Shown: positions 18,795 to 40,483, numbered from the stretch's first letter. The stretch: 50,343 nt of DNA from Minisyncoccota bacterium (GCA_041665885.1 JBAYHY010000004.1:1-50343), one strand, 5' to 3'. A program made the numbers and translations. Notes: generated from the sequence alone by a model not told the origin.

Positions 18795-21700
18795 CTATGG
18801 TGTGGGGGTTGGGGTCGAACCATCAGCGACCGGAACGGGTGCGGCTGGCGCAGGATCGACGCAAGTATTATCCACCAAGGTTTGTGGCGAAGGACACACC
18901 GGAGGAGCTGGAGGAGTATCACCCGTAGCAACACCAGTTGAATCACCACCGAGGGAATCCACACAAACATTATCAACTAAAATCTGCGAAGCGGTACAAG
19001 TCATGGGTTCTGAACCCGTCGAGGAATCGGGAGTTGTGGACACTGTGCTTCCTCCGCCGGAAGCGGCAGTTCCGGCGAGAAGATTATCAAGCTCTGTTCG
19101 GGTGATACACGTCTCACCGGCAAGATCTGTCACACAAAGCTCCTTGGTGTGCACGCGGTTTGCAAAAAAGTCTCCTATTCCATTCGTCGTGTCTGCCATC
19201 CAAGCATCCATCCTATCAAAGAAAGCAACCACAAAAGATTCTGCCGGTGAACCCGGGAGCGGAATGACGGTACCGGTAATACTTTCTAAATTCAAATCTA
19301 AATCTTGTACTGATTTGACGAGAAGCGGAGTAAGTTTGGAATAATCAACCATCCAAGGCGTCTCTCCAGGCGACAATGGATCTATCCCATTATCCCCATT
19401 CGTAGTCACCGCTTCCGGATAAATATTATTTAACTCTTGAGCAATAAAACCGGTCATCCTTTGTTTGCTCGGGTCGCTAACAAAAGCAAAATCTGCAACA
19501 TTAATTTTCATCAAATCTGATAACCCAAGAGCAGTCGGCGCAATGTCTTCTTTAATACGCATATCAGAAGAAGTATTGAAAGCAACTGTCGTGGCAGCAT
19601 TTTGAGAAACACTTCCGATTACCGTGGCATCTGTTCTCTGAAAAGTAATCAATTGAGAAGCGGCCACTCCGGTATTGTTTCCCCCTAGAATTAATAATCC
19701 GTTGTTTTGAGTTGTTCCTCCGAGGGTATTGGCAATTCTAGCTGTCGGCGTACCCGCTGCTGGAGTTCCAGTAACATGAAAAATATTGGAAGGTGACGTC
19801 GCGCCGATGCCGACATTGCCACTTCCTAATATTGTCATCTTCTCCGACAATGTTTGAAGGGTGGTACCCGAGGCGAGCGTCGTTCCGGTAAGGAATGAAA
19901 TACTACTTGCCCCCGTACCCGTTCCAGCACCTGAAGTAAGGATTAAATTACCCCCAACAATATTAGTTCCTCCCGCAACCGTTCCCCCGGCGGCTACAGT
20001 CAAAGCTCTACCCATGGTTCCTGAGGCAGTGTTTTCTATCCAAATCTTTTGTGCAACACCGTTTCCTAAGCTTAAAATATTTGTAGGACTCGTAGTTCCG
20101 ATTCCGACTTTTCCACCACCAGTAGCAATAAGTACGCTACCATAGGCCGCCAATCCTATATTTGCCCCGCCGCTTAAATAAAGATTTCCTCCCGGAGTAC
20201 CGGATGACCCATACGACCCGGCAACGATTTTTAAATCATAAGAATTAGCCATATTATCAACGTCTAGTTTTATGCTTTGCGCGGTAGCAGAATTACTATA
20301 AAGTGCGATATTCCCGGCCACTTCTAGTTTTTCTCCTGGAGTAATTGTCCCAATTCCAACCCTATGATTGGCAGAATCCACAAAAAGAGAGTTGGTGTCT
20401 ACGGTAAGATTATGAATTCCCAAATCTACATTTGACGTTCCGCCAGTGTAAGGAATGTAACCAGAAAGAGAAGGAATGTCGCTCAACAAGGCAAGGGTTC
20501 CGGTGGTGGAAGGCATTGTAATAATATTATTCCCCGTATAACCAACTGCTGGGACTAATCGTAAATATGCCCCCATTGTTCCATTTGTGAAAATCATACC
20601 ATCTGGGGTCACGGACACCTCCCGTCTTGCTCCAATCGATGGCGTGATTCCACTATAAAGACCACTATATCCGAATCCAGAAAAATAGGAATCTGTCCCG
20701 TCGTCAAAACTCGTTGTTGCTCCATAAGAATTCCAACTTGCGATGCTAGTATCATCGTCGTTGCTTGAATTAATGCCAGTTGTATCTATAACAGTATGCT
20801 CTGATGTACCATTTACAGAATCCACTGCATAGACAGTCAATGCAGAAGTGGCGTTTCCTAAAAGGGAAATTTGAGAGGCCAACAAACCACCGTTTGCATT
20901 CGCCGCACCATCGCCGATCTGCAAAACTCCTGCGGCGTTGCGAGAAAGAGAAACGTCATTACTCCCACTTCGTGCATCTACTGTGCTTCTCCAAGTATTT
21001 AACATGCCACTACCATGTTCCAACCCCAAAGTATCAAGCCTTAAAACCACATCGTTTGTTCCGTTTTTTACCTGATATTCTCCGACAGGGGAAGATTTTG
21101 TAGTAAAATTATTTGCTGTCACAACACCACTATTGTCTATATTAAATTTAGTAGCTCCTCCCACCTGTGCGTCAATCAAATACTGCGCTCCACTACCGAC
21201 TGCTGTTTCTGTGCGGTTGATGAGGAGGTCGGTGTTGGCGGCGGTAGAAGCGACTTGATTGTAGGTAGGTTTGATAGCAAGGGTTGCGCCAGTGCCCGCG
21301 GTATTTGTGAAATTCCTAGCAAACAACGCATTGGTATAGGAAGCAGTAGACCCGACAGATTCACCCGAAAAAGCAATTCCAACGTCAGCGTTACTTACAG
21401 AATAACTATACATGGCTAGCCCCCTACCAGCGGCATCTGGCGTAGTGTAACTACTTCCCGAAAAAGAAAACAAATACGGCGACACGGTAGCCGCGCTACC
21501 AAGTCTGAAACCAAGTCCGGTAGTGGTAATGCCCGCATTCGTCACGCTAAACTTACTAACCCCTCCCACTTGTGCGTCTATCAAATTCCCACTTGTTTTT
21601 GCGGTTGGGTTAATTAAGAAATCTGTGAGAGCGGAAGAGTCGGCTTTGGCAAGAGATATTTGTGACGCCAACAAGCTCCCATTGGCATTCGCCGCACCAT

Positions 21701-24700
21701 CACCGATCTGCAAAACTCCGGCAGCATTTCGAGAAAGAGAAGTATCCATGTTTGTATTACCCGCCACGCCCGGCTCCCAACCAATGATAGAGGTATTGCT
21801 GCTTGATAACTTTGCCGCAGGAAGGAATTGACCATTTGAGGAATATCTTGCCTGTACTGTGCCACCTGCGACAAAATCGATAATGTTATTACTACTAGAA
21901 AAGATACCTGTGTTCGTTCCGCCACCACTGAAAGTTATGCTAGGGGCAGAAACTAAACCACTAGATAATAAAAGTCTTCCATTTGCATTCGCTCCGCCGT
22001 CGCCGATTTGGACTATCCCTGCGGCGTTGCGGGAAAGAGATAGGTCGGGAGTGCCATATGCGGAAGTAGTGGACGACCACTTCCGCATATTAGCCGCTGG
22101 CATCTCTTCATCGCCAGCTATGTAACTACTTCCCAAGATGTAGGCCGCCCCGCCAACATTGGAGTATAGGGTGTATCCAGCCACCTTGAAACCTACAGCA
22201 GAGTTGATATATCCATCCTTGTCCACACTAGCCTTCACGGCTCCCGTACTATCCTGCCATTCTTGAAGATTTGCAGTTTGTCCTGCGTAACCCTTAATGA
22301 TTGCACCTTTGTCGGTTATTGCACCAGAGTTAATTTGAAGTTTCGCACCTGGCGTCGTCGTCCCGATGCCGACGGAACCAGAGAAATAAGCACCGCCTGA
22401 AGTGTTGATAGAAGCAAGCTCTGACCCCGATGTCCCAGAAGAAACGTAAAGTGAACTAACTTTTATTTGTCGAAATGTTGTACCTGCTGCATTTGCAAAA
22501 GTGTAAGCATTGCCGCTGTCGTTCACGGCTGGCGTACCATAAAATAGAAGATCTTTAGATGATAAGTAGAATGAGTTGCCTGCTTGAACATTTACTGACG
22601 CATATATATTTCCTGTTACTTCTAATTTGTTACCTGGATTGGTATTCCCTATCCCGACGTTGCCGCTTACAATTAACCCATTAGAAGGAGCTGCGGTACC
22701 TGCATAACTGCCGAAGGCTGCATTGCCTTCTATGTCAAGAGTGTTCACGGCAGTACTTCCTGAAGTTCCGTATCGTAATCCAGTGTCGGTAAGTCTCATC
22801 CATTGCGTAACCGCTGTGCCAGTTATTCTGCCGAAGTATGAAGTACTACCAGACTGCACCATAGAAAATGCATTGTTTGCCGCACTACCAATCACAAAAC
22901 CCGTACCAGACCAGCCAGTTTGGCTTATTTGCCCAAGAGCTGCTGTTGCAGACGGGATACTGGTAAATGTACCGCCAGTGTTGGCTACTTGTATTCCACC
23001 AACTGTAGGACTCGTCGTCCCGATGCCGACACGATGATTCGTCGCATCAACAAAAAGAGAATTAGTATCTACCGTAAGATTATGAATTCCTAAATCTACA
23101 TTTGACGTTCCGCCGGTGTATGGAATGTAACCAGTGGTTAAATCGCTTACTAAAGCTAAGGTTCCTGTAGTGGCTGGCAGGGTTAAAGTTGGAGTGCCGG
23201 CTGCTGCCGCGACTTGGATAATTGCTTTGCCGGAAGTTGCCCCCGCCAAGGAGAGAACTCCAGCTGTTGTTCCGGCGGTGCCAAGGGTTAATAGTTCTCC
23301 GGGAGCAGAGTTACCAATACCGATTTTACCATTCTTGTCTATTACTGTTAGTGCCGTACCTGATGAATTTATCCATTGTTGCAAGTCTGCCGTCTGGGAA
23401 GCAGCGCCGCGAATCTTCAACCCAGTAGTTGCCGCAGTGGCCGCAGTTATGTTTATTGCGTCCGAACCTCCTGACTGAATGTTTGCACCATTGGTTGCAT
23501 AACCAGTGACTACGTATTTACCACTTATCAAAAACCCTGAACCATTAGCGGAAATATAACCGGCATTTGATGTAATTGCATTGAATGCCGTGTTCCAGTT
23601 ACCGGCACCAGCCTTCTCTGAATACCAAATATAACTCCCATCCATATAGTGAGCATCAATCCAATAATTGTCATACCCAGGAAAGTTAAATACTCTGTGC
23701 GTATAGGTATGCTTGGTGGGCACACCCGCATTCCAGGCATAAAATTCTTGATTTATATCTCTTGAATATCCACCATCACCAATAGCCGCGGGGATAGCGG
23801 TAGCACCCAGTGTTAGATTGCCAGCACTTGTTATTTTAGACAACACAGTCCCCGTACTATCCTGCCACTGTTGCAAATCTCCGGTCTGCCCTGCGTAACC
23901 CTTAATGATTGCACCGATGTCTGTTGTGACACCAGAGTTAACTTGAAATTTCGCCCCCGGCGCCGTTGTTCCGATTCCAACGTTGCCACTCGTTGGAAGA
24001 ATTATTATTCCCTGACTTCCAATTGATGCGTTGTAACCAATAAAGCCATATGTACCGCCTCCGCCAGAACCCAAATTCAAAAACGAACCAGCGGCAGCAG
24101 AATCACGAACAACCGCACCGAAGGTAGAACTACCATACACATCTAATTTTGCTCCTGGGCTCGTTGTCCCCACTCCCACTCGATGATTTGTCGCATCCAC
24201 AAAAAGAGAATTGGTATCTACGGTGAGATTGTGAAGTCCTAAATCAACATTTGAAGTTCCACCAGTATAAGGAATGTAGCCAGTAGTTAAATCACTTACC
24301 AAGGCTAAAGTTCCTGTGGTCGTCGGTAAGGTCAAAGTCGGAGTGCCTGCGGCAGCTGCTACTTGGATAATTGCTTTGCCGGAAGTGGCTCCTGCCAAAG
24401 AAAGGACTCCGGCTGTTGTTCCGGCGGTACCGAGGGTTAGTAATTCTCCCGGGGCGGCATTTTTGATACCAATTTTGCCCGTGGGAAATAGCACGTTGCC
24501 AGCAGAAGTATAATTAACATCCTGATAAACAGTGGTGCCGGCCTTATTTCTTATCATAAACCCATTGGCATCAAAACTTCCTATGTTGTTAACAATAAAC
24601 CTTCCGTTGCCAGTCCCCTCGTCTTTTAAATTAACCCAATTACTTGCTCCAAAATAGGCATCTCCGGCTACTTGAAACATAGCACTCGGAGAAACCGTTC

Positions 24701-25292
24701 CGATGCCAACATTGCCGCCCTTAAAATAGATCCCGGCTGTTGATGACGGCCCAATCCATGATTCTGCGAGAGTGGTTAGAGGATTAATGAGGGTAAACGA
24801 GTTTGCCGCGTTGGTATAAACTCCACTCACGACCGTAAGCGCACTATCTGCCACCATCGCAGCCGGAACTGCTCCGAGTTTTTTACGCGACACCATTTCT
24901 CCATCCCACCCAGGTGTCCCAGTACCTCCGATATTTACTCCGAGATAAAGTGTTTGATTAAAATCAACTCCAGTCAAAGGGGTAACCCCTCCGAGGAGAA
25001 CGCTAAAAAGTCCATTCGTCACCTGCACCTTGTCCGTATTTATTCTCGTCTCTGTCCAAATAGCAGTACCACCAGTCGGAACTGTGTACAAAGCAAACTC
25101 CATATTGTAAGTACCGTTGGCGACGGCTACTCCGGCCGAAGTGGTAAGTTTTCCTTGATAATTCATTTGCTTGTTTATCGCAGACTCTACGTCTCCGGTC
25201 GGAAAAAATATTATTACCAAAAAGACAAAAAGCGAAATAATATTTTTTACATTTTTTCTACTTGTTAACTTTTGTGAAAATAATATTCTCAT
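18795..25292 (-). CDS. Giant secreted tail-fibre/tailspike-like adhesin with peptidase S74 intramolecular chaperone
   Basis: Signal peptide; MNYQGKL...GLFSVLLG N-domain; many GIGTTxP repeats; SDMRIKEDI...GFIAQEL...VDYSKLTPLLVKSVQDL. Confidence 0.85.
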   Translation of the reverse strand: MRILFSQKLTSRKNVKNIISLFVFLVIIFFPTGDVESAINKQMNYQGKLTTSAGVAVANGTYNMEFALYTVPTGGTAIWTETRINTDKVQVTNGLFSVLLGGVTPLTGVDFNQTLYLGVNIGGTGTPGWDGEMVSRKKLGAVPAAMVADSALTVVSGVYTNAANSFTLINPLTTLAESWIGPSSTAGIYFKGGNVGIGTVSPSAMFQVAGDAYFGASNWVNLKDEGTGNGRFIVNNIGSFDANGFMIRNKAGTTVYQDVNYTSAGNVLFPTGKIGIKNAAPGELLTLGTAGTTAGVLSLAGATSGKAIIQVAAAAGTPTLTLPTTTGTLALVSDLTTGYIPYTGGTSNVDLGLHNLTVDTNSLFVDATNHRVGVGTTSPGAKLDVYGSSTFGAVVRDSAAAGSFLNLGSGGGGTYGFIGYNASIGSQGIIILPTSGNVGIGTTAPGAKFQVNSGVTTDIGAIIKGYAGQTGDLQQWQDSTGTVLSKITSAGNLTLGATAIPAAIGDGGYSRDINQEFYAWNAGVPTKHTYTHRVFNFPGYDNYWIDAHYMDGSYIWYSEKAGAGNWNTAFNAITSNAGYISANGSGFLISGKYVVTGYATNGANIQSGGSDAINITAATAATTGLKIRGAASQTADLQQWINSSGTALTVIDKNGKIGIGNSAPGELLTLGTAGTTAGVLSLAGATSGKAIIQVAAAAGTPTLTLPATTGTLALVSDLTTGYIPYTGGTSNVDLGIHNLTVDTNSLFVDATNHRVGIGTTSPTVGGIQVANTGGTFTSIPSATAALGQISQTGWSGTGFVIGSAANNAFSMVQSGSTSYFGRITGTAVTQWMRLTDTGLRYGTSGSTAVNTLDIEGNAAFGSYAGTAAPSNGLIVSGNVGIGNTNPGNKLEVTGNIYASVNVQAGNSFYLSSKDLLFYGTPAVNDSGNAYTFANAAGTTFRQIKVSSLYVSSGTSGSELASINTSGGAYFSGSVGIGTTTPGAKLQINSGAITDKGAIIKGYAGQTANLQEWQDSTGAVKASVDKDGYINSAVGFKVAGYTLYSNVGGAAYILGSSYIAGDEEMPAANMRKWSSTTSAYGTPDLSLSRNAAGIVQIGDGGANANGRLLLSSGLVSAPSITFSGGGTNTGIFSSSNNIIDFVAGGTVQARYSSNGQFLPAAKLSSSNTSIIGWEPGVAGNTNMDTSLSRNAAGVLQIGDGAANANGSLLASQISLAKADSSALTDFLINPTAKTSGNLIDAQVGGVSKFSVTNAGITTTGLGFRLGSAATVSPYLFSFSGSSYTTPDAAGRGLAMYSYSVSNADVGIAFSGESVGSTASYTNALFARNFTNTAGTGATLAIKPTYNQVASTAANTDLLINRTETAVGSGAQYLIDAQVGGATKFNIDNSGVVTANNFTTKSSPVGEYQVKNGTNDVVLRLDTLGLEHGSGMLNTWRSTVDARSGSNDVSLSRNAAGVLQIGDGAANANGGLLASQISLLGNATSALTVYAVDSVNGTSEHTVIDTTGINSSNDDDTSIASWNSYGATTSFDDGTDSYFSGFGYSGLYSGITPSIGARREVSVTPDGMIFTNGTMGAYLRLVPAVGYTGNNIITMPSTTGTLALLSDIPSLSGYIPYTGGTSNVDLGIHNLTVDTNSLFVDSANHRVGIGTITPGEKLEVAGNIALYSNSATAQSIKLDVDNMANSYDLKIVAGSYGSSGTPGGNLYLSGGANIGLAAYGSVLIATGGGKVGIGTTSPTNILSLGNGVAQKIWIENTASGTMGRALTVAAGGTVAGGTNIVGGNLILTSGAGTGTGASSISFLTGTTLASGTTLQTLSEKMTILGSGNVGIGATSPSNIFHVTGTPAAGTPTARIANTLGGTTQNNGLLILGGNNTGVAASQLITFQRTDATVIGSVSQNAATTVAFNTSSDMRIKEDIAPTALGLSDLMKINVADFAFVSDPSKQRMTGFIAQELNNIYPEAVTTNGDNGIDPLSPGETPWMVDYSKLTPLLVKSVQDLDLNLESITGTVIPLPGSPAESFVVAFFDRMDAWMADTTNGIGDFFANRVHTKELCVTDLAGETCITRTELDNLLAGTAASGGGSTVSTTPDSSTGSEPMTCTASQILVDNVCVDSLGGDSTGVATGDTPPAPPVCPSPQTLVDNTCVDPAPAAPVPVADGSTPTPTP

Positions 25293-27884: not shown

Positions 27885-28862
27885 TTATTTTTTTCTTAAT
27901 TCAAAACGAGTCAAAATATAATAGAAGGACACAACCAGAAGCAGAATTACTGCAAACACGGGAACAAGTATTTTCCATGGAATTATCCAAAAGGACAACT
28001 TGGCATCAGCATATTCATTGTTATAACCTTTGTACAAAGAAAGATTTGCGGTGTAGCGCCCCAAACTAAAACCATTGGTCCAGTTTACCTCTCTGTATCT
28101 TATGGAATCTGGAAGAACAAAATACGCATCGACGGGTAACGTGCCGACGGTCTGACCAAATATGTTTTTTATAGTGATAGTTCCATAGGGCACAAGGTGA
28201 ACATTCCCCGTATTTTTGTATGCGATTTCAAACCCAGCCGGCCGGCTACTATAAAACATTTGAGTCGGCCCTATTGTCTTAAAATTTTCAATATTTCCTT
28301 CTTCTTTCCCCTCTCCGTTAATTCTTAACAAGAAAAGAGACCCGATTCTGGAAATAATACGAGTTTTGCCTTCAACCTCGCTTGTCCCGTCAGTCCCCAG
28401 CTTGTCAGGGTCATTTGATACAATTAACGCGCCGTAATAACCTCTAGGCTCAGCATCCTTGGGCACCGATACAGTGACCGGAATAGTGATTTTCTCTCCG
28501 AACTCTAAACTAAATTCTGTAATTTCAGGAATGATAAAATCCTTAAGTGAATAGGGACTGTTTGCATCCCCGAGAAGCACGACTGGCTGCTTCGCATCAT
28601 TTGAACCGATGAAATCCTCCGTGCTTAATTTGAATTTAACCGTCTTGTTTACTCTGTTGGTTATCGAAATGTTCTTAACCATGTTTTCTCCAGGATTTAG
28701 AAAAACTTCTGTCTTTCCTGGCTCTACCACGAAGTCATTTTGCGCAGTTACGTCAACATTGATCTTCGTATATGCTTCTGCCTGTAAGGGCAATGAAGAA
28801 ATACCTACAAATACAGAAATGATTGTTACACTATATATTATTTTTTTTATTGAAAAAATCAT
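27885..28862 (-). CDS. DUF916/DUF3324-like (WxL-interacting-protein-like) membrane-anchored protein
   Basis: Signal peptide, two predicted beta-sandwiches (ISITNR...ITIPVTVSVP..GYYGALIV; YKNTGNVHLVP.G.I.I), IIPW before C-terminal TM. Confidence 0.65.
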   Translation of the reverse strand: MIFSIKKIIYSVTIISVFVGISSLPLQAEAYTKINVDVTAQNDFVVEPGKTEVFLNPGENMVKNISITNRVNKTVKFKLSTEDFIGSNDAKQPVVLLGDANSPYSLKDFIIPEITEFSLEFGEKITIPVTVSVPKDAEPRGYYGALIVSNDPDKLGTDGTSEVEGKTRIISRIGSLFLLRINGEGKEEGNIENFKTIGPTQMFYSSRPAGFEIAYKNTGNVHLVPYGTITIKNIFGQTVGTLPVDAYFVLPDSIRYREVNWTNGFSLGRYTANLSLYKGYNNEYADAKLSFWIIPWKILVPVFAVILLLVVSFYYILTRFELRKK

Positions 28863-30312: not shown

Positions 30313-31203
30313 TTATATTTTTTCCCCGACTAAAGCTTTAATTCTTTCTTCCACGGGTGGATGAGTGGCAAAAAGTCCGGTAATTTTTTTACCTAGTTTT
30401 GAACCCTTCGGGTCGGCGATGTATAGATGCGCTATCACACTCGATTGATGCGCCATGGGTTGACTATATTCAGAAATTTTTCGAAGCGCGTTCGCCAGTC
30501 CTTCCGGATAACGGGTAAGTAGTGCCCCGGATGCATCTGCTAGAAATTCACGTTTTCTGGAAATCGCTAATTGAATCAAAATTGCAAAAAGTGGCGCAAG
30601 AATCGAAAGAATAATTCCAACAAGCATAAACAAACCACCTCCCCCTTCACCGTCTCTCCTTCTGCCAAAAAATAAATTTCTCCTGAAGACATCTGCGGCA
30701 ATGGTGACGAAACCGACAAGGACTACGACGACAGTAGAGAGCAACATATCTCTGTTGCCCACGTGTGAAAGTTCATGCGCGATTACTCCTTCCAGTTCGG
30801 TCTTGTCCAAAATGGCAAGTAGGCCGGTCGTGGCGCAAACGACGGCATGCTTTTTATCTCTACCCGTAGCAAAAGCGTTCGGGGCCCTGTCCTCTACCAC
30901 GTACACTCTCGGCATCGGCAAACCAGCCGTGATAGAAAGATTCTCCACGCTCGTGTATAAATCAAAATATTCTTCCCTTTTGGCTTCTTTGGCACCGGCA
31001 AGCTTGAGCACGATTTTATCTGAAAACCAGTAAGAAAAAACGTTCATCAAAATACTGAAAATAACAAAAAAATAAAGAATATCGGGGCTACCGTAATAAA
31101 TACTGAAAAACCAGCCGATTCCAATGACTATCACAAAAAATGCTGACATTAAAACCCAGGTTTTCGTAACATTTTTTGTTTGTTCGGTATATAACGTAGC
31201 CAT
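30313..31203 (-). CDS. htpX: Zinc metalloprotease HtpX (M48)
   Basis: PNAFATG, GVIAHELSHV, SRKREFLADA, FATHPP. Confidence 0.95.
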   Translation of the reverse strand: MATLYTEQTKNVTKTWVLMSAFFVIVIGIGWFFSIYYGSPDILYFFVIFSILMNVFSYWFSDKIVLKLAGAKEAKREEYFDLYTSVENLSITAGLPMPRVYVVEDRAPNAFATGRDKKHAVVCATTGLLAILDKTELEGVIAHELSHVGNRDMLLSTVVVVLVGFVTIAADVFRRNLFFGRRRDGEGGGGLFMLVGIILSILAPLFAILIQLAISRKREFLADASGALLTRYPEGLANALRKISEYSQPMAHQSSVIAHLYIADPKGSKLGKKITGLFATHPPVEERIKALVGEKI

Positions 31204-31700
31204 TATTCTATGGTAATGGGAATTAAAATGCTTTTATCGTTCTCTGGAAGCCCAGAAGCGTTATCGTTGTGAACTTCAATATAAGCTGGCCCCTTTGGCA
31301 GTGTCGAAAAATCAATGGTGGTCTTGAAGGAAACGGGCCCCGCGGTCATCCATTCACTCGTAGCATTGCCATTGCCAGCCTGAAGTAAATTTTTGTCTTT
31401 ACCCAAAACATTTATTAAAATATTTCCTTCAAAAAAATAACCCCCTTTGACAGAACCGGTGATTTCTACCACGCCTCTGACTTTTTGATTTGGCAGAACG
31501 GAAAGAAAAACTAAGTCGTCTTTATTCCCGAAAACTTGTAGCTCATTTTCGTTCGACGTTTTTCCCTCCTGATTTTGACTCCAAAAAGGAAAATACGTTT
31601 CTTTGTTCTCGAACATCACCAAAAGGGCGACTATCATCAGAATAATCAGAATAAATAATAGCGCAGTATTTAATTTCGAACCAAAAAAATTATTTTGCAT
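31203..31700 (-). CDS. Membrane-anchored Gmad2-like Ig-fold protein
   Basis: ITGSVKGGYFFEG, WMTAGPVSF, DNASGLPEND; start reassigned to ATG 31700. Confidence 0.7.
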   Translation of the reverse strand: MQNNFFGSKLNTALLFILIILMIVALLVMFENKETYFPFWSQNQEGKTSNENELQVFGNKDDLVFLSVLPNQKVRGVVEITGSVKGGYFFEGNILINVLGKDKNLLQAGNGNATSEWMTAGPVSFKTTIDFSTLPKGPAYIEVHNDNASGLPENDKSILIPITIE

Positions 31701-31740
31701 ACCTATATCGTACACAAAAATATGCTAAAAATCAATTCAA

Positions 31741-33450
31741 TTATAGATCTCCTTCCTCAATGCTCTCGAGTCTTTTCGCAAAATACTTTTCTGCTTCCTC
31801 CACATCCCTGGACAATGTATTCATCGTTTCTTTGTCATTCTCTGTAAGCTTGTCTTTTATTTCATCATTTTTAAATATTTTTATACTTTGTTTTATATCC
31901 TCATTTAATATCTTGAATATCTTATGGGCTTCACTTTCTGTTTGATCAAGATCTGTCAAAAGTTTTCTTCTCATTTTCTTCAACCGATGATAGAAATGAT
32001 ATGCGAGGTACAACAAGATGACCAAGAGCAACAGAACCGGGATAGCGACAGACAATATCTCAATTGCCAGCAAACTTAATTTGATAAACGCGGGTTTGTT
32101 TATGACAACGAAGTATTTATAAGAAGGTGGGCTAATCACCTCCGCCGATCTTACCGCCTCAGCATAAAAGGACACTAAGCCAGCATTGTTCGTAAAATCA
32201 CTCGTGAAAGTAAAACTGCCGTCTTCCAATGATCTGGTAATATAACTTTTTTCATCGAGATTTTCTTCTTTTAACCAAATACGAACATCCGTATTTGGAT
32301 ACGAGGTCCCCATAATTTCTATTTTTTCTCCTTTTTCAATTGATTCAGAATATTTGATAATTTGTGGAGACTTGTTCTCCGGAAAAACAGTTGTTAAAAC
32401 TTTTTCGCTTAAGTTGCCCGCCCTATCGTAAGCAATAATACTTAGATCATGTCTACCGGGCGCCACTGGTGGTAGTGTTATTTTTGTTAAACCATCACTT
32501 CCCCCCACCTCCGAGATCACCCCACCCTCAAGCAAAATTTTATATTTATTTATCCCAGAGGTGGCGTCCGTACTTTCAACCTGAAGCAAAACGAGGTCGT
32601 CCCCGGAGGCAGAACTGGTAATACTCGTAATAACTGGAGCCGTAGTATCGGTCTTAAATTTAAAGTGGGTGGTCTTACTCCAGCCCGCACCATTTTTAAA
32701 CCTTATATGAAGATAGTGAATTCCGTCACCTAAATCCTTAAGTGTTTTTTCTTTAATGGGTGGAGAATATGTAATGGAAGGAATTGAAGTTGGAGAGGAG
32801 TTTAGTAATGTTTGCACGGTAGAAACACCCGATGACAAATCCCAAGAAAAAGTAATCTTATTGAGTGAATACCAATCTTCATAAGACGCTATTTCCGAAG
32901 AAACGACAACGGGAGACGTCGGAAGTTTTTCTGACTCCATCGCTTGTTCTATTGTTTCAGCCCCTTGATATGAAATAATGTTTACTGCAATTCCCCTTTT
33001 AGAAGAGGCGACGTTTGTCCCCAGTCCATCGTTTGCGTAAATGCTTGCGGAATTAAATAAAATTTGAGCATTTCCAGCCTTTTTTGCTTTAAACAACACA
33101 CTGATTACTTTTCCACTTGTTCCCCTAAACCCCGGATTTGGAACACCCCCATTGAAAGAAATAGTTCCATTGATATTCGAAAACGTCGGTTGCTCAACCC
33201 ACATAGAAAACACCGAACCACTGCTACTTATAGAATCAACACTCAATAAATCAACCGGAAAAGAAATTAAACCTTCAATACTATTTATATATATTCCGGC
33301 GGTGTCTGTATTCACAGTCACGGTGAACGTTTGGTTTTCTGTTACAGTTTGGTTATTACTAGTACAAAAAATATCCGCCGCATTCACGGTTCTAAAAACA
33401 AACAGCGAAACTAGTATAAAAACAATTTTTAAATAAAAATTATTCTTCAT
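31741..33450 (-). CDS. Cohesin-domain protein with Ig-like domains, TM anchor and cytoplasmic coiled coil
   Basis: INSIEGLISFP..LL.V.SI...SVF.MWVEQP......ISF.GG.P cohesin-like pattern. Confidence 0.75.
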   Translation of the reverse strand: MKNNFYLKIVFILVSLFVFRTVNAADIFCTSNNQTVTENQTFTVTVNTDTAGIYINSIEGLISFPVDLLSVDSISSSGSVFSMWVEQPTFSNINGTISFNGGVPNPGFRGTSGKVISVLFKAKKAGNAQILFNSASIYANDGLGTNVASSKRGIAVNIISYQGAETIEQAMESEKLPTSPVVVSSEIASYEDWYSLNKITFSWDLSSGVSTVQTLLNSSPTSIPSITYSPPIKEKTLKDLGDGIHYLHIRFKNGAGWSKTTHFKFKTDTTAPVITSITSSASGDDLVLLQVESTDATSGINKYKILLEGGVISEVGGSDGLTKITLPPVAPGRHDLSIIAYDRAGNLSEKVLTTVFPENKSPQIIKYSESIEKGEKIEIMGTSYPNTDVRIWLKEENLDEKSYITRSLEDGSFTFTSDFTNNAGLVSFYAEAVRSAEVISPPSYKYFVVINKPAFIKLSLLAIEILSVAIPVLLLLVILLYLAYHFYHRLKKMRRKLLTDLDQTESEAHKIFKILNEDIKQSIKIFKNDEIKDKLTENDKETMNTLSRDVEEAEKYFAKRLESIEEGDL

Positions 33451-34012
33451 TTTTTCTTTTTTTGAGAATTCGATAAAAATAGAAAATTACCAGAATAATT
33501 ATTATACCGAAAAAGAACCAATTGTTTTTAATCTCCTCTTTCTCTTTCACGAGAATTTTATAATTCACCGGGGCAGACAATACCTCCGTGCCGAAACTAT
33601 CATTTAAATACGCAGCCATGTTTTGAGATGAAAAAGAAATGGTTCCCGCTGATCTTGGAATGATCGAAAGATCAAACACCCTTAGATCTTTTCCGAAAAC
33701 TCCTCCCGGCGTCCCTCCCGTAAATGAAATTTTTTGTCCTGAAATGCTGGGTTCATTCGGCCACATGCTAAATATCGACTTTTCTATACTTACACCGACA
33801 ATATCCAACGAACCCCCTATTTCCAGGCTTCCTTCTAAAACATTTATTTCATTGTCTCCCGTGTCAACATATATTTTGAACATCGCTGGCTCACCGACAA
33901 TAATCCTGGTGGGTTCTTTTATGTAAACATTTAAAGTATTAGCAAAAGATATTTTTGGTAATAAACTAATTGTTATAATAAATATAAATGCAAAAAAGAA
34001 AAATTTTTTCAT
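33440..34012 (-). CDS. Single cohesin-domain protein with C-terminal TM anchor
   Basis: INVLEGSL...SIFSMWPNEP...ISFTGGTP; C-terminal TM. Confidence 0.72.
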   Translation of the reverse strand: MKKFFFFAFIFIITISLLPKISFANTLNVYIKEPTRIIVGEPAMFKIYVDTGDNEINVLEGSLEIGGSLDIVGVSIEKSIFSMWPNEPSISGQKISFTGGTPGGVFGKDLRVFDLSIIPRSAGTISFSSQNMAAYLNDSFGTEVLSAPVNYKILVKEKEEIKNNWFFFGIIIILVIFYFYRILKKRKNEE

Positions 34013-34025
34013 ATATTATTCAAAA

Positions 34026-35720
34026 TTAATTAGAAACTGCTCCTACCTTTCCCCATTGTGAAAGTAAAATTGAGAAATCGACCGAATTAACCTTCAAATC
34101 TTTGTTTATATCCACATTTGGGTTTGAAAAGGGTGGATTTGTCTTCCAAAAAGCCAAAAGAATTGAAAAATCTACTGAATTGACCTTTCCATCACCACTG
34201 AAGTCAGCGACGTTGCGGGCACCATTGTTCACTGGTGGAAAATTCGTAGTTCCATCACCACCTCCACCACCTCCTCCGCCCCCACCTCCGGGAGTTGAAG
34301 AAATAGCCACAAATGACCTTGAAGCACCGGATTTTTCAGTACCATAATTTACTGCCACCTTAAAATAATAACTTCCCGGAGCAACAACCGTAGAAGACAA
34401 AATCGTGTCAAAATTTTCACCCGGATTAATTAATTTTGAAGCTGAAGAATAATAAGTGTCATCTCCACCACCACAATCGTTGCTCAAATTTGTGACCACA
34501 CACCATTCATAATAATATTCAAAACCAGTGAAACCTTCATTGGTAATACGAACATTCGCAGTTATATTCGGAACAGTAAGATCTTCCATGCTGGTGATTA
34601 TCACCTGTGGCGGAGCAGAAGTAGTCAGGGAGCGAACGGAATAATTCCACACATCCGCTACTAAAGTACCGAAGGTGGTGAGAGAGCGGGCGGAATATCC
34701 CCAGGTGTTGAGCGGAATACTTGCAATGTCTGCCCAGTTAATCGTATCTGTCTTGGCCTGGATGGCGGCGGCTGTCGTCCCCAGGGTGCCAATGTCACCC
34801 CAAGCGATAGTGTCAGTCTTCGTCTTGATGCCGGTCACATCTGCCCAAGCGATGGTATCGGTCTTCGTCTTGATGCCGGTCACATCTGCCCAAGCAAGGG
34901 TGTCCGTCTTGGCTTTAATGTCTCCAGCCGTGGTGACCAGTCCGGTTACATTACCCCAAGCGATGGTATCGGTCTTCGTTTTGATACCGGTAATATTTCC
35001 TGTGCCCACTTCGGTAATCAAAGTAGCCACATTTCCTTTAATCGCAGTTACATCTGTCCAATCGAGAGTATCCGTCTTGGCTTTAATGGCAGTGACATCG
35101 GATTCAACTGTACCGCCAAGAGAAGTTAAGGTTCTGGTGGTATTGCCCCACACATCCGCTACTAAAGTACCGAAGGTGGTGAGACTCCTCGTCGTAGAAC
35201 CCCAGATATCAGCCACGAGTGTTCCAAAAGTAGTCAGAGACCTGGTAGTATTGCCCCAAACATCAGAGACCAAACTTCCGAAAGTCGTAAGAGAGCGCGT
35301 TCCGGAACCCCACACAGATGAAGCAATGTCATTATTTAGCGAAGCCACCGTCGGCACAACAACGAATGTTTTATCCACCACGATTAAGTCCCCTCCACCA
35401 CCACTTCCACAAGACATAGCGGTAGACCAACTTCCCGTAGATTCTCCTCCACCCACAGCATAATCATAATAATGCCAACCAGTGGCAATAGTAGTCATAG
35501 CTCCAGCATTTACTTTTAAGGTTCCAACAGGGTCATTGATGGTTATCGTGCAAGCAGTGACCGACGGCGTATAATCATCGTTATAAACAAATTCACCAAT
35601 TCTGATAGTATCTCCAAGCGAGACTTTTTGATATTCTGCGTTCGCAATATTGGGAGAGGCAAAAATAATCCAAAAAATGGGCAGGAATAAAAAATGAATT
35701 AATAACGTTTGTTTGTTCAT
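34026..35720 (-). CDS. Secreted repeat-stalk fibre protein with poly-Gly linker and C-terminal dockerin
   Basis: Signal peptide; 16-aa and 15-aa repeats; duplicated loops DFSGDGKVNSVDFS and DINKDLKVNSVDFS. Confidence 0.78.
   Translation of the reverse strand: MNKQTLLIHFLFLPIFWIIFASPNIANAEYQKVSLGDTIRIGEFVYNDDYTPSVTACTITINDPVGTLKVNAGAMTTIATGWHYYDYAVGGGESTGSWSTAMSCGSGGGGDLIVVDKTFVVVPTVASLNNDIASSVWGSGTRSLTTFGSLVSDVWGNTTRSLTTFGTLVADIWGSTTRSLTTFGTLVADVWGNTTRTLTSLGGTVESDVTAIKAKTDTLDWTDVTAIKGNVATLITEVGTGNITGIKTKTDTIAWGNVTGLVTTAGDIKAKTDTLAWADVTGIKTKTDTIAWADVTGIKTKTDTIAWGDIGTLGTTAAAIQAKTDTINWADIASIPLNTWGYSARSLTTFGTLVADVWNYSVRSLTTSAPPQVIITSMEDLTVPNITANVRITNEGFTGFEYYYEWCVVTNLSNDCGGGDDTYYSSASKLINPGENFDTILSSTVVAPGSYYFKVAVNYGTEKSGASRSFVAISSTPGGGGGGGGGGGDGTTNFPPVNNGARNVADFSGDGKVNSVDFSILLAFWKTNPPFSNPNVDINKDLKVNSVDFSILLSQWGKVGAVSN
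34620..35330. repeat. Intragenic 45-bp and 48-bp repeat arrays
   Basis: tcttcgtcttgatgccggtcacatctgcccaagc in tandem with 45-bp period; ccacacatccgctactaaagtaccgaaggtggtgaga at about 34647 and 35148. Confidence 0.85.
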
Positions 35721-35768
35721 TTTTGTTATAATTATAATACATGAAATCTTTATTAATATCCATAAAAG

Positions 35769-35827: not shown

Positions 35828-36445
35828 ATGATAAAGTTTTTACCAAATAAAAATTCTTTTAAGCTAGTCTCAAAGAAGGATGCATATAAGAAGGTCGAAA
35901 CTTTTGACGACTCACCCCTCGAAGAATTGACAGAAAATGTTAAAAATTTTGATAAGCGAGCTTTTCTAAAAGTATTGGGTATTGCAGGGCTTGGATTATT
36001 CGCTAGTTCACTTTTTCCAAAGAAAACCGACGCTTATGTTGTGGGAAGTACTCCGACTTCAAATGTCGTCGGAATAAAAGATTCCTCAAACACCAGAATA
36101 AACCCAGCCACAGACGACACCCTGAGTTCCCTCATCTCTGGGCAGGGAGTGAGCAAGCTTTCCACAAGCCTCTCTGCTTCTGGGGCAATTCATGCTCCCG
36201 CCTCTGGTAAAAAAATACGAGTCTACGCATCTCGTTTTTCCTTGACGGCAGATGCCACCTCCGTTTCATTTCGTTTTACTCCGAGTGGGACCGACCATGA
36301 AAAATACATATCTCCAAAAACTGGTGGCCTCTATGGAGCGAACAATCATCCGAACTATATTGAAGGAGGGGTGGATCAAGTGTTATACTGTGCGATAGTG
36401 GGGACCACAAGTGTGCAAATTAATATAGATTATTTAGAGGTCTAA
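35828..36445 (+). CDS. Putative Tat substrate with KR-type twin-arginine signal
   Basis: DKRAFLK (35951-35971), h-region VLGIAGLGLFASSLF, TDA-Y cleavage-like site; same operon as tatC. Confidence 0.65.
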   Translation: MIKFLPNKNSFKLVSKKDAYKKVETFDDSPLEELTENVKNFDKRAFLKVLGIAGLGLFASSLFPKKTDAYVVGSTPTSNVVGIKDSSNTRINPATDDTLSSLISGQGVSKLSTSLSASGAIHAPASGKKIRVYASRFSLTADATSVSFRFTPSGTDHEKYISPKTGGLYGANNHPNYIEGGVDQVLYCAIVGTTSVQINIDYLEV

Positions 36446-36460
36446 TTTTTAATAATAATT

Positions 36461-38590
36461 ATGACAAGAATATCAAAAGAATTATTGGTGACCAGTCCCG
36501 GAACTTTCAATTATCTGAGCGAGAGCGCATATGATTATACGAAATGGAATTTAGGCAAAGGGATTATTTATAACGCCGGGGCAACCGCAGTAGAAAAATA
36601 CATCGCCCCCTGTTTTGATGCTATTCGACCCCTCGAAGAAAGCACCGGCTTTGCTGTGGCCCAGGTGTTTGCTTACAATTTTAGCCCTACTTATGATTAT
36701 TTATTTGGAATTGAAAACTTGGCCACCGCCGTGGCGACAAGGCGTGTGCATTTATGGAAAATAAACAAAAAAGACGGCACACGAAGCTGGAATGGTTTTA
36801 TCACCATGACTCTTCTCACCGCCACGGCTCACACGGTTCGTGATTTTAAAATTGATGTAAAAAATGAATCGACGGGAACAGTCGGAGTGTCCGGTACTGC
36901 AGTTACCGGTAGTGGCACTCTTTTTGCAACCAATAAAGTCGCCGTAGGGGCCAGAATCGGCTTTGGTTCGAATGACCCAACGCAAATTACTACTTGGTAC
37001 AGAATTGCCACGAGAACATCAGACACCGCTTTGGTTTTAAACGTAACGGCCGGGACAATTGCCTCGGGGACATCTTATGTTATTCAAGAATTTAGACCCA
37101 TCTATGTGGCGACAAATGCTACTACGACCAACGGAGGCATCCACTACGGTAAGGGAATCAGCTTAGAAGATTTCACTGTCACGGGTACGACGATTCCCGT
37201 TGCTGTCGCCACCGATGACCAAAAAGCAATGTATTGGCTTAAGGATGCCTCTACTCAAACAAACCTAGTCGCCGCCGGTGCTGCCGCAGATTGGAGCACC
37301 ACCACACCTACCACCCTTGATTTTTATGTGTTGGACTTGGTGTCGGCGGGTAATTATAAAGTTTTTAAATATAACATTAGGGCCCCCCTCACCGTAGCCT
37401 CCGGCAATTCTGTTTCTGCCTTTTTGTTTGCGACAGGAAACAATGCTTTCACCGGCACGGGCTCTCAGCTCGCAAATCTTACTTTGGCTACCGCAAACCA
37501 TGGACCCCAGTCTGGGATACCTGCTTTATACTTTATATCCACGACCAGATTTATGGCCGCCCCTCTTTCTGCAATAGTAATCTCCTCGACTACTTGGATT
37601 ACAAACGTCATCGCAGAAATACCTACAGGAGGAATAACGACATACACCGTCACTGGAGCACTCGCTTCAATAGAATATATTGATGAAATTGACAGCTTTC
37701 TTCTAATGACTTCTTCTATCTATAATTACCTCACGCAATTCGTTTCAAGCGGTATTGCTTTTGATAGTGTCTGGGGCAGAAATGTATCCGCCCTAGAACA
37801 ATCTACGAAAGACGACGGCTGTCCAAAACAATATTCCATAAACGCAGTCGCCGGGATTGCCCACAACCGGGATGCTTCAGCCAGAACATATATAGTGAAA
37901 CAATCCACCACCGTAGGAATAGCGGTCGTGTATGTGATGGCGGCAGGTACTCAGTGGGGAGGCAATAACTATCTCGTAAGCCCGGAGATAGTCACACCAA
38001 ATGTTTTACACTACTACAGAGCATTTATAAACTCAGTTAACAGGGTCGGTAGTGAAGCACTCGGTAGGCCGGTAGAACCAGTAAAGCTTTTTATTCGTAG
38101 CACAAACATAACTAGCGATATAACGAGTGGCTGGACGGAAGTGGTAGAGGATAATAATATTTCAGGATTCTCTGGGGCAAGCTCTGTGCAGTTTAAAATT
38201 GAATTTAAAATATTTGGAGATAGTTGTATCCCCGCTCGTGTTTTAGGAATAAATCTCTCCTACGAAGACAACACTTCCGACTCTCACTTCTCGCTCTCTG
38301 TAGAAAAGTCCTCGGCTACAAGCAAAATATTTGCTTGGTGGTTTGATAATGATTTTGGTACAGTTGTACCGCCACTCACCGTCAAGCTTTATGACGCCGA
38401 CACGGGTGGACTTTTGCTTACAGATGATACTGTCCTGTCTGCTAACGGACTTTGGGAAAAAACCACCGACGGTACGAGCTGGGCACCCTATGACACGGTA
38501 GATAGAGGAAACAACACAACCTGGATACGATATACCCCATCATCACTAGCAGACAATGTAAAAGTCGAAGCATATTTACAGCAATCATAA
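36461..38590 (+). CDS. 709-aa beta-rich, virion-structural-like protein without signal peptide
   Basis: GTVGVSGTAVTGSGTLF...VGARIG...YRIATRTSDTAL module reminiscent of phage tail proteins. Confidence 0.55.
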   Translation: MTRISKELLVTSPGTFNYLSESAYDYTKWNLGKGIIYNAGATAVEKYIAPCFDAIRPLEESTGFAVAQVFAYNFSPTYDYLFGIENLATAVATRRVHLWKINKKDGTRSWNGFITMTLLTATAHTVRDFKIDVKNESTGTVGVSGTAVTGSGTLFATNKVAVGARIGFGSNDPTQITTWYRIATRTSDTALVLNVTAGTIASGTSYVIQEFRPIYVATNATTTNGGIHYGKGISLEDFTVTGTTIPVAVATDDQKAMYWLKDASTQTNLVAAGAAADWSTTTPTTLDFYVLDLVSAGNYKVFKYNIRAPLTVASGNSVSAFLFATGNNAFTGTGSQLANLTLATANHGPQSGIPALYFISTTRFMAAPLSAIVISSTTWITNVIAEIPTGGITTYTVTGALASIEYIDEIDSFLLMTSSIYNYLTQFVSSGIAFDSVWGRNVSALEQSTKDDGCPKQYSINAVAGIAHNRDASARTYIVKQSTTVGIAVVYVMAAGTQWGGNNYLVSPEIVTPNVLHYYRAFINSVNRVGSEALGRPVEPVKLFIRSTNITSDITSGWTEVVEDNNISGFSGASSVQFKIEFKIFGDSCIPARVLGINLSYEDNTSDSHFSLSVEKSSATSKIFAWWFDNDFGTVVPPLTVKLYDADTGGLLLTDDTVLSANGLWEKTTDGTSWAPYDTVDRGNNTTWIRYTPSSLADNVKVEAYLQQS

Positions 38591-38596
38591 AAATAT

Positions 38597-38767
38597 ATGG
38601 CATTAACCTCAATACAACCACCACCACAAAATAAAGCCGTGATTTACTTTGAAAGAGGAAATGTCGGAACCGTGGAAGATATTCAGGCCAAGGGGGAAAA
38701 CGAGCTCCAAATTCCTCTAATTGTGGCTGGGGGTGGAGGAGGAAATATTTTTATTATGTCAGAATAA
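38597..38767 (+). CDS. 56-aa protein MALTSIQPPP...VAGGGGGNIFIMSE (not in ORF track)
   Basis: ATG 6 nt after the upstream stop, TAA 11 nt before the next ATG. Confidence 0.7.
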   Translation: MALTSIQPPPQNKAVIYFERGNVGTVEDIQAKGENELQIPLIVAGGGGGNIFIMSE

Positions 38768-38778
38768 TTTTAAAATAC

Positions 38779-39384
38779 ATGATTCACATCGAAAAAGACC
38801 AGCTAGTACCAGAATATGAAAACCTAAGGACCCTTTCAGACTCCGGTGATTATAACGATGACGACATTATTGAATGCTACAACCCCGATGATTCAAGTAT
38901 TGCTATTTGTGGTTTTACTTCCTCTTTCATAAAATACGGGGGACTCATGTATCGGTTCAATGACCCGGCAGAGCTGGGAGCGGAAATTTTAAAAATTGAC
39001 CCTGAATCAACCCACTCAGCCGCCTCTTTCGTCAGGATGAAGGAAGAGCTGTCAAAAAAAATGGACGAGGGTTCGCTCGAGCCGGAATCATTGCAACAAG
39101 CACTCAAAGAGGAACAAACTATGATGGAGGAAAAAATAAATGAACCTGACCCTGAGATAGATACAGAAGAAATACCGGAAGAAGAAGTTCCTCCTGAAAC
39201 AGAACCAGAAATTATTCCCGATTCTGAGACAGAAATTATTCCAGATCCTGAGACAGAGCCTGAGATTATCCCTGAACCTGAGCCACCCATCGAAACGGAA
39301 CCAGAGCCAATCATTGAACCTGAACCTACCACCCCCGACCCGACAGTAAGCACCCTGTCTCGCAAGGGTAAAAAATTTTTTTAA
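38779..39384 (+). CDS. Acidic protein with Pro/Glu repeat tail and basic C-terminus
   Basis: (E/D)PE(T/I)E repeats in aa 130-190; ends RKGKKFF. Confidence 0.7.
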   Translation: MIHIEKDQLVPEYENLRTLSDSGDYNDDDIIECYNPDDSSIAICGFTSSFIKYGGLMYRFNDPAELGAEILKIDPESTHSAASFVRMKEELSKKMDEGSLEPESLQQALKEEQTMMEEKINEPDPEIDTEEIPEEEVPPETEPEIIPDSETEIIPDPETEPEIIPEPEPPIETEPEPIIEPEPTTPDPTVSTLSRKGKKFF

Positions 39385-39425
39385 CTATCTGAAGCAGGTA
39401 TAATCCCTTTAACCTTCGAAAATAA

Positions 39426-40175
39426 TTGATTAATGATTTGCTTGAAAATATAAAAAAATTCCTTCCATTTATAGAGGAGCTGAGGCGCAGACTTTATACT
39501 TCTGCCGTAGTTTTTGCTTTTGTTTTTATCGGTGGGTTTTTTTCCACCGGCCTAGTCATCAAGCATTTCGTTTCAACTTTTCACATTGAGGGGGTAACCA
39601 TTACGACCACTTCTCCTTTCCAGCTCACCGACCTAGCCGTAGACCTGGGGATATTTTTTGCTTTGATTGTCACTATTCCGTTGGCCATATTCCAGATATA
39701 TTCTTTTATCTTCCCGGGATTAAACAAAAGAGAACAAAAATTATTGTTATTGTCTATCCCCATATGTCTTCTCTTGTTTGTGTTTGGCTTTATTTTTGGC
39801 GCTGCTATTCTCTTTTTCGCTTTTAAAATTATCGCAAAGATTAATGAAAGTTTGGGTATTTTAAATATTTGGGACATTAGCTCCTACCTTTCTCAGATTT
39901 TTATTACTTCTGCGCTGTTGGGACTATTATTCCAATTCCCACTAATTTTAACGGGACTTATTAAGCTAGGTTTATTTGGTGTTTCCGCTCTCAAAAAAAA
40001 GAGGCACTTCGCCTGGCTTGTTGTTTTTATTATTACCTCTCTTCTTCCTCCCACCGACGGGTTATCCCTAATCGCAATGTCTTTACCCATGATATTCCTA
40101 TATGAAATAACAATATTCGTCAATCGAAAACCGGTGTTCCTCCCCGTGGAAATAAAAATGGACAAACCAGAATAA
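39426..40175 (+). CDS. tatC: Twin-arginine translocase subunit TatC
   Basis: EELRRRL, FQIYSFIFPGLNKRE, PPTD..S....PM..LYE; six TMs; TTG start. Confidence 0.9.
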   Translation: MINDLLENIKKFLPFIEELRRRLYTSAVVFAFVFIGGFFSTGLVIKHFVSTFHIEGVTITTTSPFQLTDLAVDLGIFFALIVTIPLAIFQIYSFIFPGLNKREQKLLLLSIPICLLLFVFGFIFGAAILFFAFKIIAKINESLGILNIWDISSYLSQIFITSALLGLLFQFPLILTGLIKLGLFGVSALKKKRHFAWLVVFIITSLLPPTDGLSLIAMSLPMIFLYEITIFVNRKPVFLPVEIKMDKPE

Positions 40176-40300
40176 TCGCGATTCAAAAAGGATTGTGCCT
40201 CTTTACTTCCATTCCCCAATGGTCTATCATTATGTGAGTGGCAGAGCCACTGGTCGTACTTTGTAGAGTATTAATATTTATAAAAATAACTAACAAAACC

Positions 40301-40483
40301 ATGTTTGGATTAGGAACTAAAGAAATAATAATTATAGCAGTAATCGCGATTCTTCTTTTTGGTTCAAAAAAGATTCCAGAGCTTGCGAAAAGTTTAGTGG
40401 AGGCTATCCGCCACATAACCGGAGCATTCAGGAATGTTGACGAAACAGCTTCTCGCTCAGATAACAATAAAAAGAAGTCTTAA
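40301..40483 (+). CDS. tatA: Twin-arginine translocase subunit TatA/E
   Basis: MFGLGTKEIIIIAVIAILLFGSKKIPELAKSL; start reassigned to ATG 40301. Confidence 0.92.
   Translation: MFGLGTKEIIIIAVIAILLFGSKKIPELAKSLVEAIRHITGAFRNVDETASRSDNNKKKS

Follow-up and report, generated by a model that had tools for sequence, protein, structure and literature searches.

An ultra-small Minisyncoccota bacterium (Patescibacteria) with a genome of 643 kb (GCA_041665885.1, 97% complete) encodes three proteins that are predicted to fasten a fibre to its cell surface. The genes lie closely packed, all on the minus strand, at positions 31741-35720 of the 50,343-nucleotide stretch analysed here (JBAYHY010000004.1:1-50343, hereafter the window): Doc (34026-35720), a secreted, non-enzymatic repeat-stalk protein of 564 amino acids with a C-terminal dockerin; CohS (33440-34012), a small type I membrane protein of 190 amino acids with a cohesin; and CohL (31741-33450), a large type I membrane protein of 569 amino acids with a cohesin. 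We consider it probable that this trio is a non-covalent, Ca-dependent, non-cellulosomal mount for a surface fibre that is itself probably an oligomeric coiled coil.

A scan of the whole genome finds exactly one dockerin and exactly two cohesin-like domains, all adjacent in the trio, and the order Doc, CohS, CohL is kept in every relative checked; such exclusivity and recurrent gene order are what a dedicated plug-and-socket mount predicts. The spacing of the genes, with a gap of 13 nt between Doc and CohS and an overlap of 11 nt between CohS and CohL, is operon-like. Given the predicted binding, the trio probably represents a conserved means by which an appendage is held on the cell surface.

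Dockerin and cohesin modules

Doc ends in a module (residues 501-557; 34050-34220, minus strand) that is, as judged from its residues, a type I dockerin, defined as two tandem segments of about 22 residues in which an EF-hand-like calcium loop (D, N/S, D, N and D at positions 1, 3, 5, 9 and 12) is followed by a helix. Both loops are intact (D506-S508-D510-N514-D517 and D537-N539-D541-N545-D548), each segment carries the helix SVDFSILL, and 14 of 20 residues are identical between the two halves. The module matches PF00404 with 37.9 bits against a cut-off of 22.9 (E 2e-9; 34.7 bits in the whole-genome scan), and matches the dockerins 4fl4, 2y3n, 2mte and 1daq of the Protein Data Bank (PDB) with E values of 1e-3 to 8e-3. 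Across 30 family members its Ca-ligand positions vary hardly or not at all, and the helix is almost invariant across the Doc family. AlphaFold2 (AF2), run for Doc on a 30-sequence alignment, gives the module a moderate predicted local distance difference test score (pLDDT) of 70-83.

Because the Pfam Cohesin family misses CohS and CohL, their identity was tested by profile, fold and orthologues; single-sequence searches with either protein matched no cohesin chain in the PDB. CohS consists of a signal peptide, the cohesin (residues 25-157; 33542-33940), a transmembrane helix (residues 165-183; 33464-33520) and a basic tail. An exhaustive HMMER search recovers 1842 representative relatives of CohS, typically with a signal peptide, a cohesin-like domain, sometimes one immunoglobulin (Ig) domain, a C-terminal transmembrane helix and a basic tail. 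A profile (A2) built from 40 of these relatives, two of which match PF00963 (best E 1.8e-7), matches the third ScaB cohesin of Ruminococcus flavefaciens (5aoz, 5m2o) with E 1.3e-4. The AF2 model of CohS, based on the A2 alignment, has a pLDDT of 95 and some nine to ten strands, the cohesin fold being a nine-stranded beta jelly-roll. In a Foldseek comparison with the PDB, ranks 1-13 are all cohesins (2vo8, 2jh2, 5n5p, 2w1n, 6kgd, 2xdh, 5m2s, 2o4e, 5m2o and 5aoz; E 3e-8 to 3e-5), of which the stand-alone modules reach target template modelling (TM) scores of 0.61-0.77, and 2w1n, a double module of cohesin and FN3, reaches 0.48. MG domains of integrins and complement come next, from E 4e-5. The modelled fold supports assignment of the outer domain of CohS to the cohesins.

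The corresponding domain of CohL (residues 25-160; 32971-33378), preceded by a signal peptide, resembles CohS by BLASTP (E 6e-6) and by the A2 profile (E 1.8e-38). PF00963 is matched by 14 of 35 full-length CohL orthologues (best E 4.5e-8), one of which is named 'cohesin domain-containing protein' by NCBI, and these similarities support its prediction as a cohesin. A profile of full-length CohL (A1) retrieves adhesin Ig repeats from the PDB and no cohesins. The CohS and CohL families have a signature in common (N57, S79, W84, P88, F97, G99-G100 and D138-G-x-G-T142). Beyond the cohesin, CohL carries three Ig-like domains (residues 181-452; Big_13 in 32 of the 35 orthologues), a C-terminal transmembrane helix (residues 455-487; 31990-32088) and a conserved helical cytoplasmic tail of 82 residues (488-569; 31744-31989), the conservation of which is 0.41 as against 0.43-0.52 for the Ig domains. 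No SLH domain was detected on the proteins of the trio, and an LPXTG-type model reached E 0.052 only, over the transmembrane helix and basic tail. The first-pass annotation had taken the two genes after Doc for membrane-anchored cohesins; Pfam alone misses both, and the assignment is upheld by family profile, orthologues, C-terminal transmembrane helices and, for CohS, a model that matches solved cohesins.

[quoted passage not shown]

Distribution and exchangeable cargo

Among 61 genomes searched (60 relatives and the window's own), the cohesin pair occurs in 24, and in 16 of these PF00404 is found 20-150 bp upstream of the pair on the same strand. Four of the eight genomes that seemed to have cohesins only were inspected, and all four encode a dockerin-ending open reading frame (ORF) directly upstream that was missed at the Pfam threshold, so that a dockerin-ending gene directly precedes the cohesin pair in 20 of 24 genomes (the remaining four being uninspected). 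Five public contigs have the same order, with Doc of 713-957, the CohS-type protein of 193-316 and the CohL-type protein of 481-578 amino acids; for three of the five, a source name or BLASTP points to Yonathbacteria, Doudnabacteria and Paceibacteria-type lineages. In a sample drawn evenly from the phylum, the cohesin family occurs in 32 of 151 genomes (30 of 130 genera), often as adjacent pairs; in some genomes just one small cohesin protein is seen. Although accessory and patchy even within the genus, the trio is widespread. Doc itself has more than 465 homologues, most of them with PF00404, and those with a source name all belong to CPR lineages (among them Paceibacterota, Yonath-, Magasanik-, Nomura- and Doudnabacteria) except for one Omnitrophota record.

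Conservation within Doc is highest in the dockerin (0.76), the N-terminal head reaching 0.53 and the repeats about 0.37. Within the repeat-stalk family, the Ig-like domain, a poly-Gly run and the dockerin are kept while repeat number varies: copies of an 18-residue repeat range from 0 to 12 and of a 15-residue repeat from 0 to 23, in homologues of 311-957 amino acids. Other classes of cargo precede the same cohesin pair in three inspected relatives, as FN3/Ig-type proteins of 341-447 amino acids (L010:3173-4516, L012:3256-4584 and L011:4532-5557) that have poly-Gly in mid-protein and a dockerin with the helix LVDFSIAAFWY; in a further relative (G055, C10:205108-206659), the dockerin ends an ORF of 5198 amino acids and the cohesin pair is next. 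The pattern is that of a general cassette, with a constant socket and plug and variable payloads, because the dockerin is most conserved while cargo and repeats vary. The L011 cargo protein has an N-terminal Cys/Asp-rich motif, CNDGIDNDGDNLIDYLGDPGCD. The G055 contig that bears the long ORF also carries a second, weaker dockerin and cohesin pair (C10:182432-182989), 23 kb from the first.

The predicted Doc fibre, its proposed attachment and rival readings

Doc begins with a signal peptide (residues 1-28; 35637-35720) read as Sec/signal peptidase I type, cleaved between ANA and EY and having neither an RR motif nor a lipobox; the AF2 model places a helix at residues 3-21. The head that follows (residues 29-124; 35349-35636) is a beta-sandwich with pLDDT above 90 and two nearly invariant cysteines (C57 and C104), and is called MG2-like because the same domain in the orthologue P0006 matches Pfam MG2 (E 7.5e-7, below the cut-off). 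On the other side of the stalk, an Ig-like beta-sandwich (residues 371-473; 34302-34610) with pLDDT above 90 and the motif NEG..YEY.YEWCVV..CGGGDD has a mean conservation of 0.66 and recurs in 102 of the 120 best homologues. A predicted flexible linker with a run of 11 Gly (residues 474-500; 34221-34301; pLDDT below 50) leads to the dockerin, and a Gly run of at least five is likewise found in 102 of the 120 best homologues.

The stalk itself is composed of four copies of an 18-residue repeat (W-G-x-T-T-R-S-L-T-T-F-G-T-L-V-A-D-V; residues 129-205, 35106-35336), about seven copies of a 15-residue repeat (T-G-I-K-T-K-T-D-T-I-A-W-A-D-V; residues 206-340, 34701-35105) and two more 18-residue repeats (residues 341-370, 34611-34700), all listed by regular expression. 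A consensus of 78 units of the shorter repeat is [TGS][GAD]IK[TA]KTDTI[AD]W[TSG]D[VI], and its DNA counterpart is a 45-bp tandem unit at 34799-34910 detected by Tandem Repeats Finder. The strongest hydrophobic period is 3.6 for the 18-residue repeats (18/5) and 3.75 for the 15-residue repeats (15/4), and in the AF2 model the FGTLVADVW segments form short helices with pLDDT below 50. The stalk fits a non-heptad coiled coil, which would need partner chains and for that reason be modelled poorly as a monomer. A beta-solenoid or triple beta-spiral was also considered for the 15-residue unit, given its T-x-T-x-T pattern and Gly; the hydrophobicity spectrum of Doc itself favours 3.75 and 3.6, and in the longer repeat array of P0006 a period of 2.0 ties with 3.75. 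On the strand opposite the repeats, an antisense ORF of 262 amino acids (34675-35463, plus strand) is most likely no gene but a by-product of repeat codon composition, which keeps that frame free of stop codons.

Searches of Doc against Pfam, NCBIfam and PHROGs brought up neither a catalytic nor a carbohydrate-binding family, and Foldseek matched its model to generic Ig/FN3 sandwiches in the PDB and to no catalytic fold. The first-pass annotation was right in these respects, having described a protein with no recognisable catalytic domain and a layout of N-terminal domain, two types of repeat, Ig-like domain, poly-Gly hinge and dockerin, all present in that order. Foldseek alignments of Doc with viral models were long, with root-mean-square deviations of 30-70 A and TM scores of about 0.13, and were treated as meaningless; the PDB and viral matches alike are discounted because the AF2 model is poor in the stalk. 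As to a phage origin of the stalk, nothing was found in PHROGs or by tblastn against 50,697 phage records.

Doc would be exported by Sec, as its signal peptide suggests, and CohS and CohL would each span the membrane once and expose the cohesin on the outside, a topology read from sequence and fold. The CohS cohesin would then lie some 10 residues from the membrane and that of CohL atop three Ig-like domains, with the helical tail in the cytoplasm. Family knowledge, exclusivity and synteny suggest that the Ca-loaded dockerin of Doc plugs into these cohesins, possibly in two orientations, since its halves are nearly identical. The Gly11 hinge would give the plug the reach to meet its socket, and the repeats of 18 and 15 residues would form a non-heptad stalk of variable length that carries the MG2-like heads off the cell. 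The product would be a non-covalently held surface fibre, most likely for contact with host cells or surfaces or for holding other surface proteins; it may be adhesive, as the first-pass annotation proposed.

Several points weigh against this account. Dockerin-cohesin binding is a prediction, and CohS and CohL themselves match PF00963 at no E value up to 0.1. The presence of two cohesin anchors for one dockerin is not accounted for by the mount model, and the trio is patchy within the genus, about half of the genomes lacking it. The head of Doc is fairly conserved (0.53), an unusual trait in the tip of a host-specific adhesin. The periods of 3.6 and 3.75 are harmonics of the repeat lengths and only suggestive, and with the tie at 2.0 in P0006 they leave the fold and oligomeric state of the stalk as inferences. 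The repeats have no relative in the PDB (by phmmer) or in PHROGs, and the pLDDT of the stalk stays below 50.

The fibre may be a tether rather than an adhesin, because the repeat-stalk class usually adjoins a twin-arginine translocation (Tat) cluster with TatA and TatC, which in the window is the divergent neighbour of Doc (35828-40483, beyond a spacer of 107 bp). Doc would then be an adaptor tethering Tat-exported phage-like proteins to the cohesins, some eight genes serving one organelle. All seven repeat-stalk loci for which the flanks are resolved (the window, L001 and L005-L009) have TatC no more than 5 kb away, and in five of the seven (L001, L005-L007 and L009) TatC and the trio point in the same direction; four (L001, L005-L007) have the order T1-T2-T3-TatC-TatA-Doc-CohS-CohL, and in L009 only TatC is confirmed upstream of the trio. 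TatC (39426-40175 in the window) is rare, occurring in just 6 of the 61 genomes, and in four of the six it is within 8 kb of the trio. The fairly conserved head would suit a constant partner, and one Joint Genome Institute gene call (P0112) fuses a Doc homologue with TatC. Against a tether stand some 20 trio-bearing relatives without detectable TatC, of which at least four (G001, G016, G017 and G028, on contigs that end inside or beside the gene) have the same class-specific Ig-polyG-dockerin module; a strict rule that the repeat-stalk class always occurs with Tat is rejected on these four. The Tat block and the trio diverge in the window and in L008 and so form separate transcripts, contact between Doc and Tat cargo is not indicated by any result, and the linkage could reflect a shared surface-protein island. 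Our conclusion is that the trio stands as a unit of its own, with Tat as a frequent but dispensable neighbour; we regard the tether as unlikely, though the strongest of the alternatives to a display mount.

Alternatively, the trio might be a structural element of the envelope, either a spacer or strut between the membrane and the wall or S-layer, or a transmembrane link in which both cohesins hold the same dockerin and the CohL tail couples inward. Such a role would suit paralogous cohesins at different heights facing one dockerin with near-identical halves, a cytoplasmic tail about as conserved as the Ig domains, and a dockerin interface constant across lineages. It is improbable for a trio that is missing from about half of the genus and about 80% of the phylum sample, a poor fit to a core part; variable stalk length and exchangeable cargo resemble a display system, and some genomes have only one small cohesin protein.

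The cohesin-like domains could also be generic Ig/MG-like sandwiches, the dockerin binding a glycan or another protein or only stabilising Doc through Ca. The missing Pfam Cohesin matches, and the integrin and complement MG domains that Foldseek also returns, agree with this; the 13 best ranks held by cohesins (target TM score at least 0.61 except for 2w1n), the cohesin sequences matched by the A2 profile, the orthologues that match PF00963, and a strict adjacency and one-to-two exclusivity that would have to be coincidence, make it highly improbable. A minimal cellulosome-like display of enzymes, for which the mere presence of cohesin and dockerin modules speaks, is almost certainly wrong, as the sole dockerin sits on a protein without a catalytic or carbohydrate-binding domain and the genome has no multi-cohesin scaffoldin.

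The mount for a surface fibre remains our preferred reading. In a larger scheme, the trio might form the constant base of a modular host-contact organelle of Paceibacteria-type CPR bacteria, in which a trimeric coiled-coil fibre has three symmetric dockerins on Gly tethers, each held at once by CohS, next to the membrane, and by CohL, above the wall, the cytoplasmic helix of CohL couples to the interior, and the MG2-like heads hold folded phage-derived proteins from a private TatAC. We regard this larger scheme as rather unlikely as a whole.

Known systems and neighbouring genes

In Clostridium (Acetivibrio) thermocellum, the anchoring scaffoldins SdbA, OlpB, Orf2p and OlpA/OlpC attach to the S-layer or wall by SLH domains and hold the enzyme scaffold. 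As is predicted for CohS and CohL, they are cell-bound cohesins that accept a structural protein with a dockerin; they differ in that the trio has no SLH domain, enzymes or scaffoldin. A cellulosome combines several carbohydrate-active enzymes that bear dockerins with a scaffoldin that has multiple cohesins and a carbohydrate-binding module. The genome instead has a single dockerin, carried by a non-catalytic protein, and two proteins with one cohesin each, and no carbohydrate-binding module or glycoside hydrolase was found on them; the trio is therefore no cellulosome, nor are CohS and CohL scaffoldins of the SLH or sortase type, their anchor being a C-terminal transmembrane helix. Stalks of trimeric autotransporter adhesins such as YadA consist of 15-residue, non-heptad coiled-coil repeats with a period of 3.75 that hold the head off the cell. 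The likeness to Doc, in which the oligomer is predicted, is functional and limited to variable length and a 15-residue periodicity: trimeric autotransporters have the YadA head and neck and a beta-barrel anchor, no match to which was found in the trio with Pfam or NCBIfam, whereas the attachment of Doc would be non-covalent, through the dockerin.

The best structural matches of CohS are the cohesin modules of Clostridium perfringens glycosidases (2vo8, 2jh2, 2o4e and 2w1n) and of Archaeoglobus fulgidus (2xdh). These pairs, like the trio, are non-cellulosomal and present in few copies per genome; the C. perfringens modules join secreted enzymes to each other, whereas the trio, with its three genes in fixed order, would attach a non-enzymatic fibre to anchors in the membrane. 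Non-cellulosomal cohesin-dockerin modules were surveyed by Peer et al. (2009), as cited in PMC10066038. A precedent for the principle is known from Ruminococcus flavefaciens, in which non-enzymatic CttA docks through its X-dockerin on the ScaE cohesin (PMC4266597). As in the docking predicted here, a dockerin-ending non-enzymatic protein is fastened to its own surface by a single-cohesin anchor from the same cluster, and the CttA-ScaE joint carries mechanical load. ScaE is sortase-linked to the wall, whereas CohS and CohL have C-terminal transmembrane helices; CttA combines carbohydrate-binding modules with a rigid X-module and type III dockerin, and Doc an MG2-like head with non-heptad repeats, the Gly11 hinge and a symmetric type I-like dockerin. 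The trio further differs in having two paralogous anchors per plug, no surrounding cellulosome and a CPR host.

Non-cellulosomal cohesin-dockerin pairs are already known, as is a non-enzymatic adhesion protein on a cell-bound cohesin. In the literature searched, dockerins of CPR bacteria and Omnitrophota receive only passing mention, as possible adhesins or an essential envelope protein (PMC10633639, PMC10066038). For a cultivated Saccharibacterium, a dockerin protein is reported as essential (PMC10633639), a hint at the relevance of the trio. The same literature gave no description of a membrane-anchored dockerin-cohesin trio of CPR bacteria, which appears to be unpublished.

A large share of bacterial diversity belongs to the Patescibacteria, which seemingly live attached to other cells, type IV pili being the usual suspects; to our knowledge, their means of holding on is largely unknown. 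If the proposed reading is true, a small and readily recognised cassette for the non-covalent mounting of exchangeable non-enzymatic fibres on the membrane would be one concrete candidate for their contact apparatus, open to test, and would extend cohesin-dockerin biology to membrane-anchored sockets, to a layout of one plug and two sockets, and to genomes of about 0.6 Mb without polysaccharide-degrading machinery. The near-invariant dockerin helix could make the pair useful as an orthogonal tag-and-catcher set.

The numbers of promoter-like and terminator-like sites in the trio region are near and no more than those in shuffled sequence, respectively; one weak promoter-like site lies 5' of Doc (35734-35762, minus strand; 9 of 12 matches in a consensus scan). 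A second ORF of 564 amino acids in the window (4425-6119) was rejected as a paralogue of Doc; it encodes CTP synthase, and the equal length is coincidental.

Other surface-related genes lie around the trio. The window encodes a DUF916/DUF3324-like protein of 325 amino acids (27885-28862) that belongs to a WxL-like cluster, and in one relative (G051, L011:3606-4532) the trio directly follows a homologue of it (31% identity, E 1e-36), so that a WxL-like set and the trio are neighbours in more than one genome. Giant proteins of the Peptidase_S74 (tailspike-chaperone) type stand beside the trio in L005 (13688-18808; 1568 amino acids), where a second dockerin protein follows, and in L010 (5031-8999; more than 1322 amino acids); the window's own protein of this type (18795-25292; 2165 amino acids) is 6.4 kb from the trio. 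Beginning 25 nt past the stop codon of CohL, a gene for a membrane protein of 170 amino acids with a Gmad2 Ig-like domain (31203-31715; E 8.6e-7) ends in a stop codon that overlaps the htpX start at 31203, and L006 encodes a Gmad2 protein of 461 amino acids 2.5 kb beyond its trio (BLASTP E 5.5e-11).

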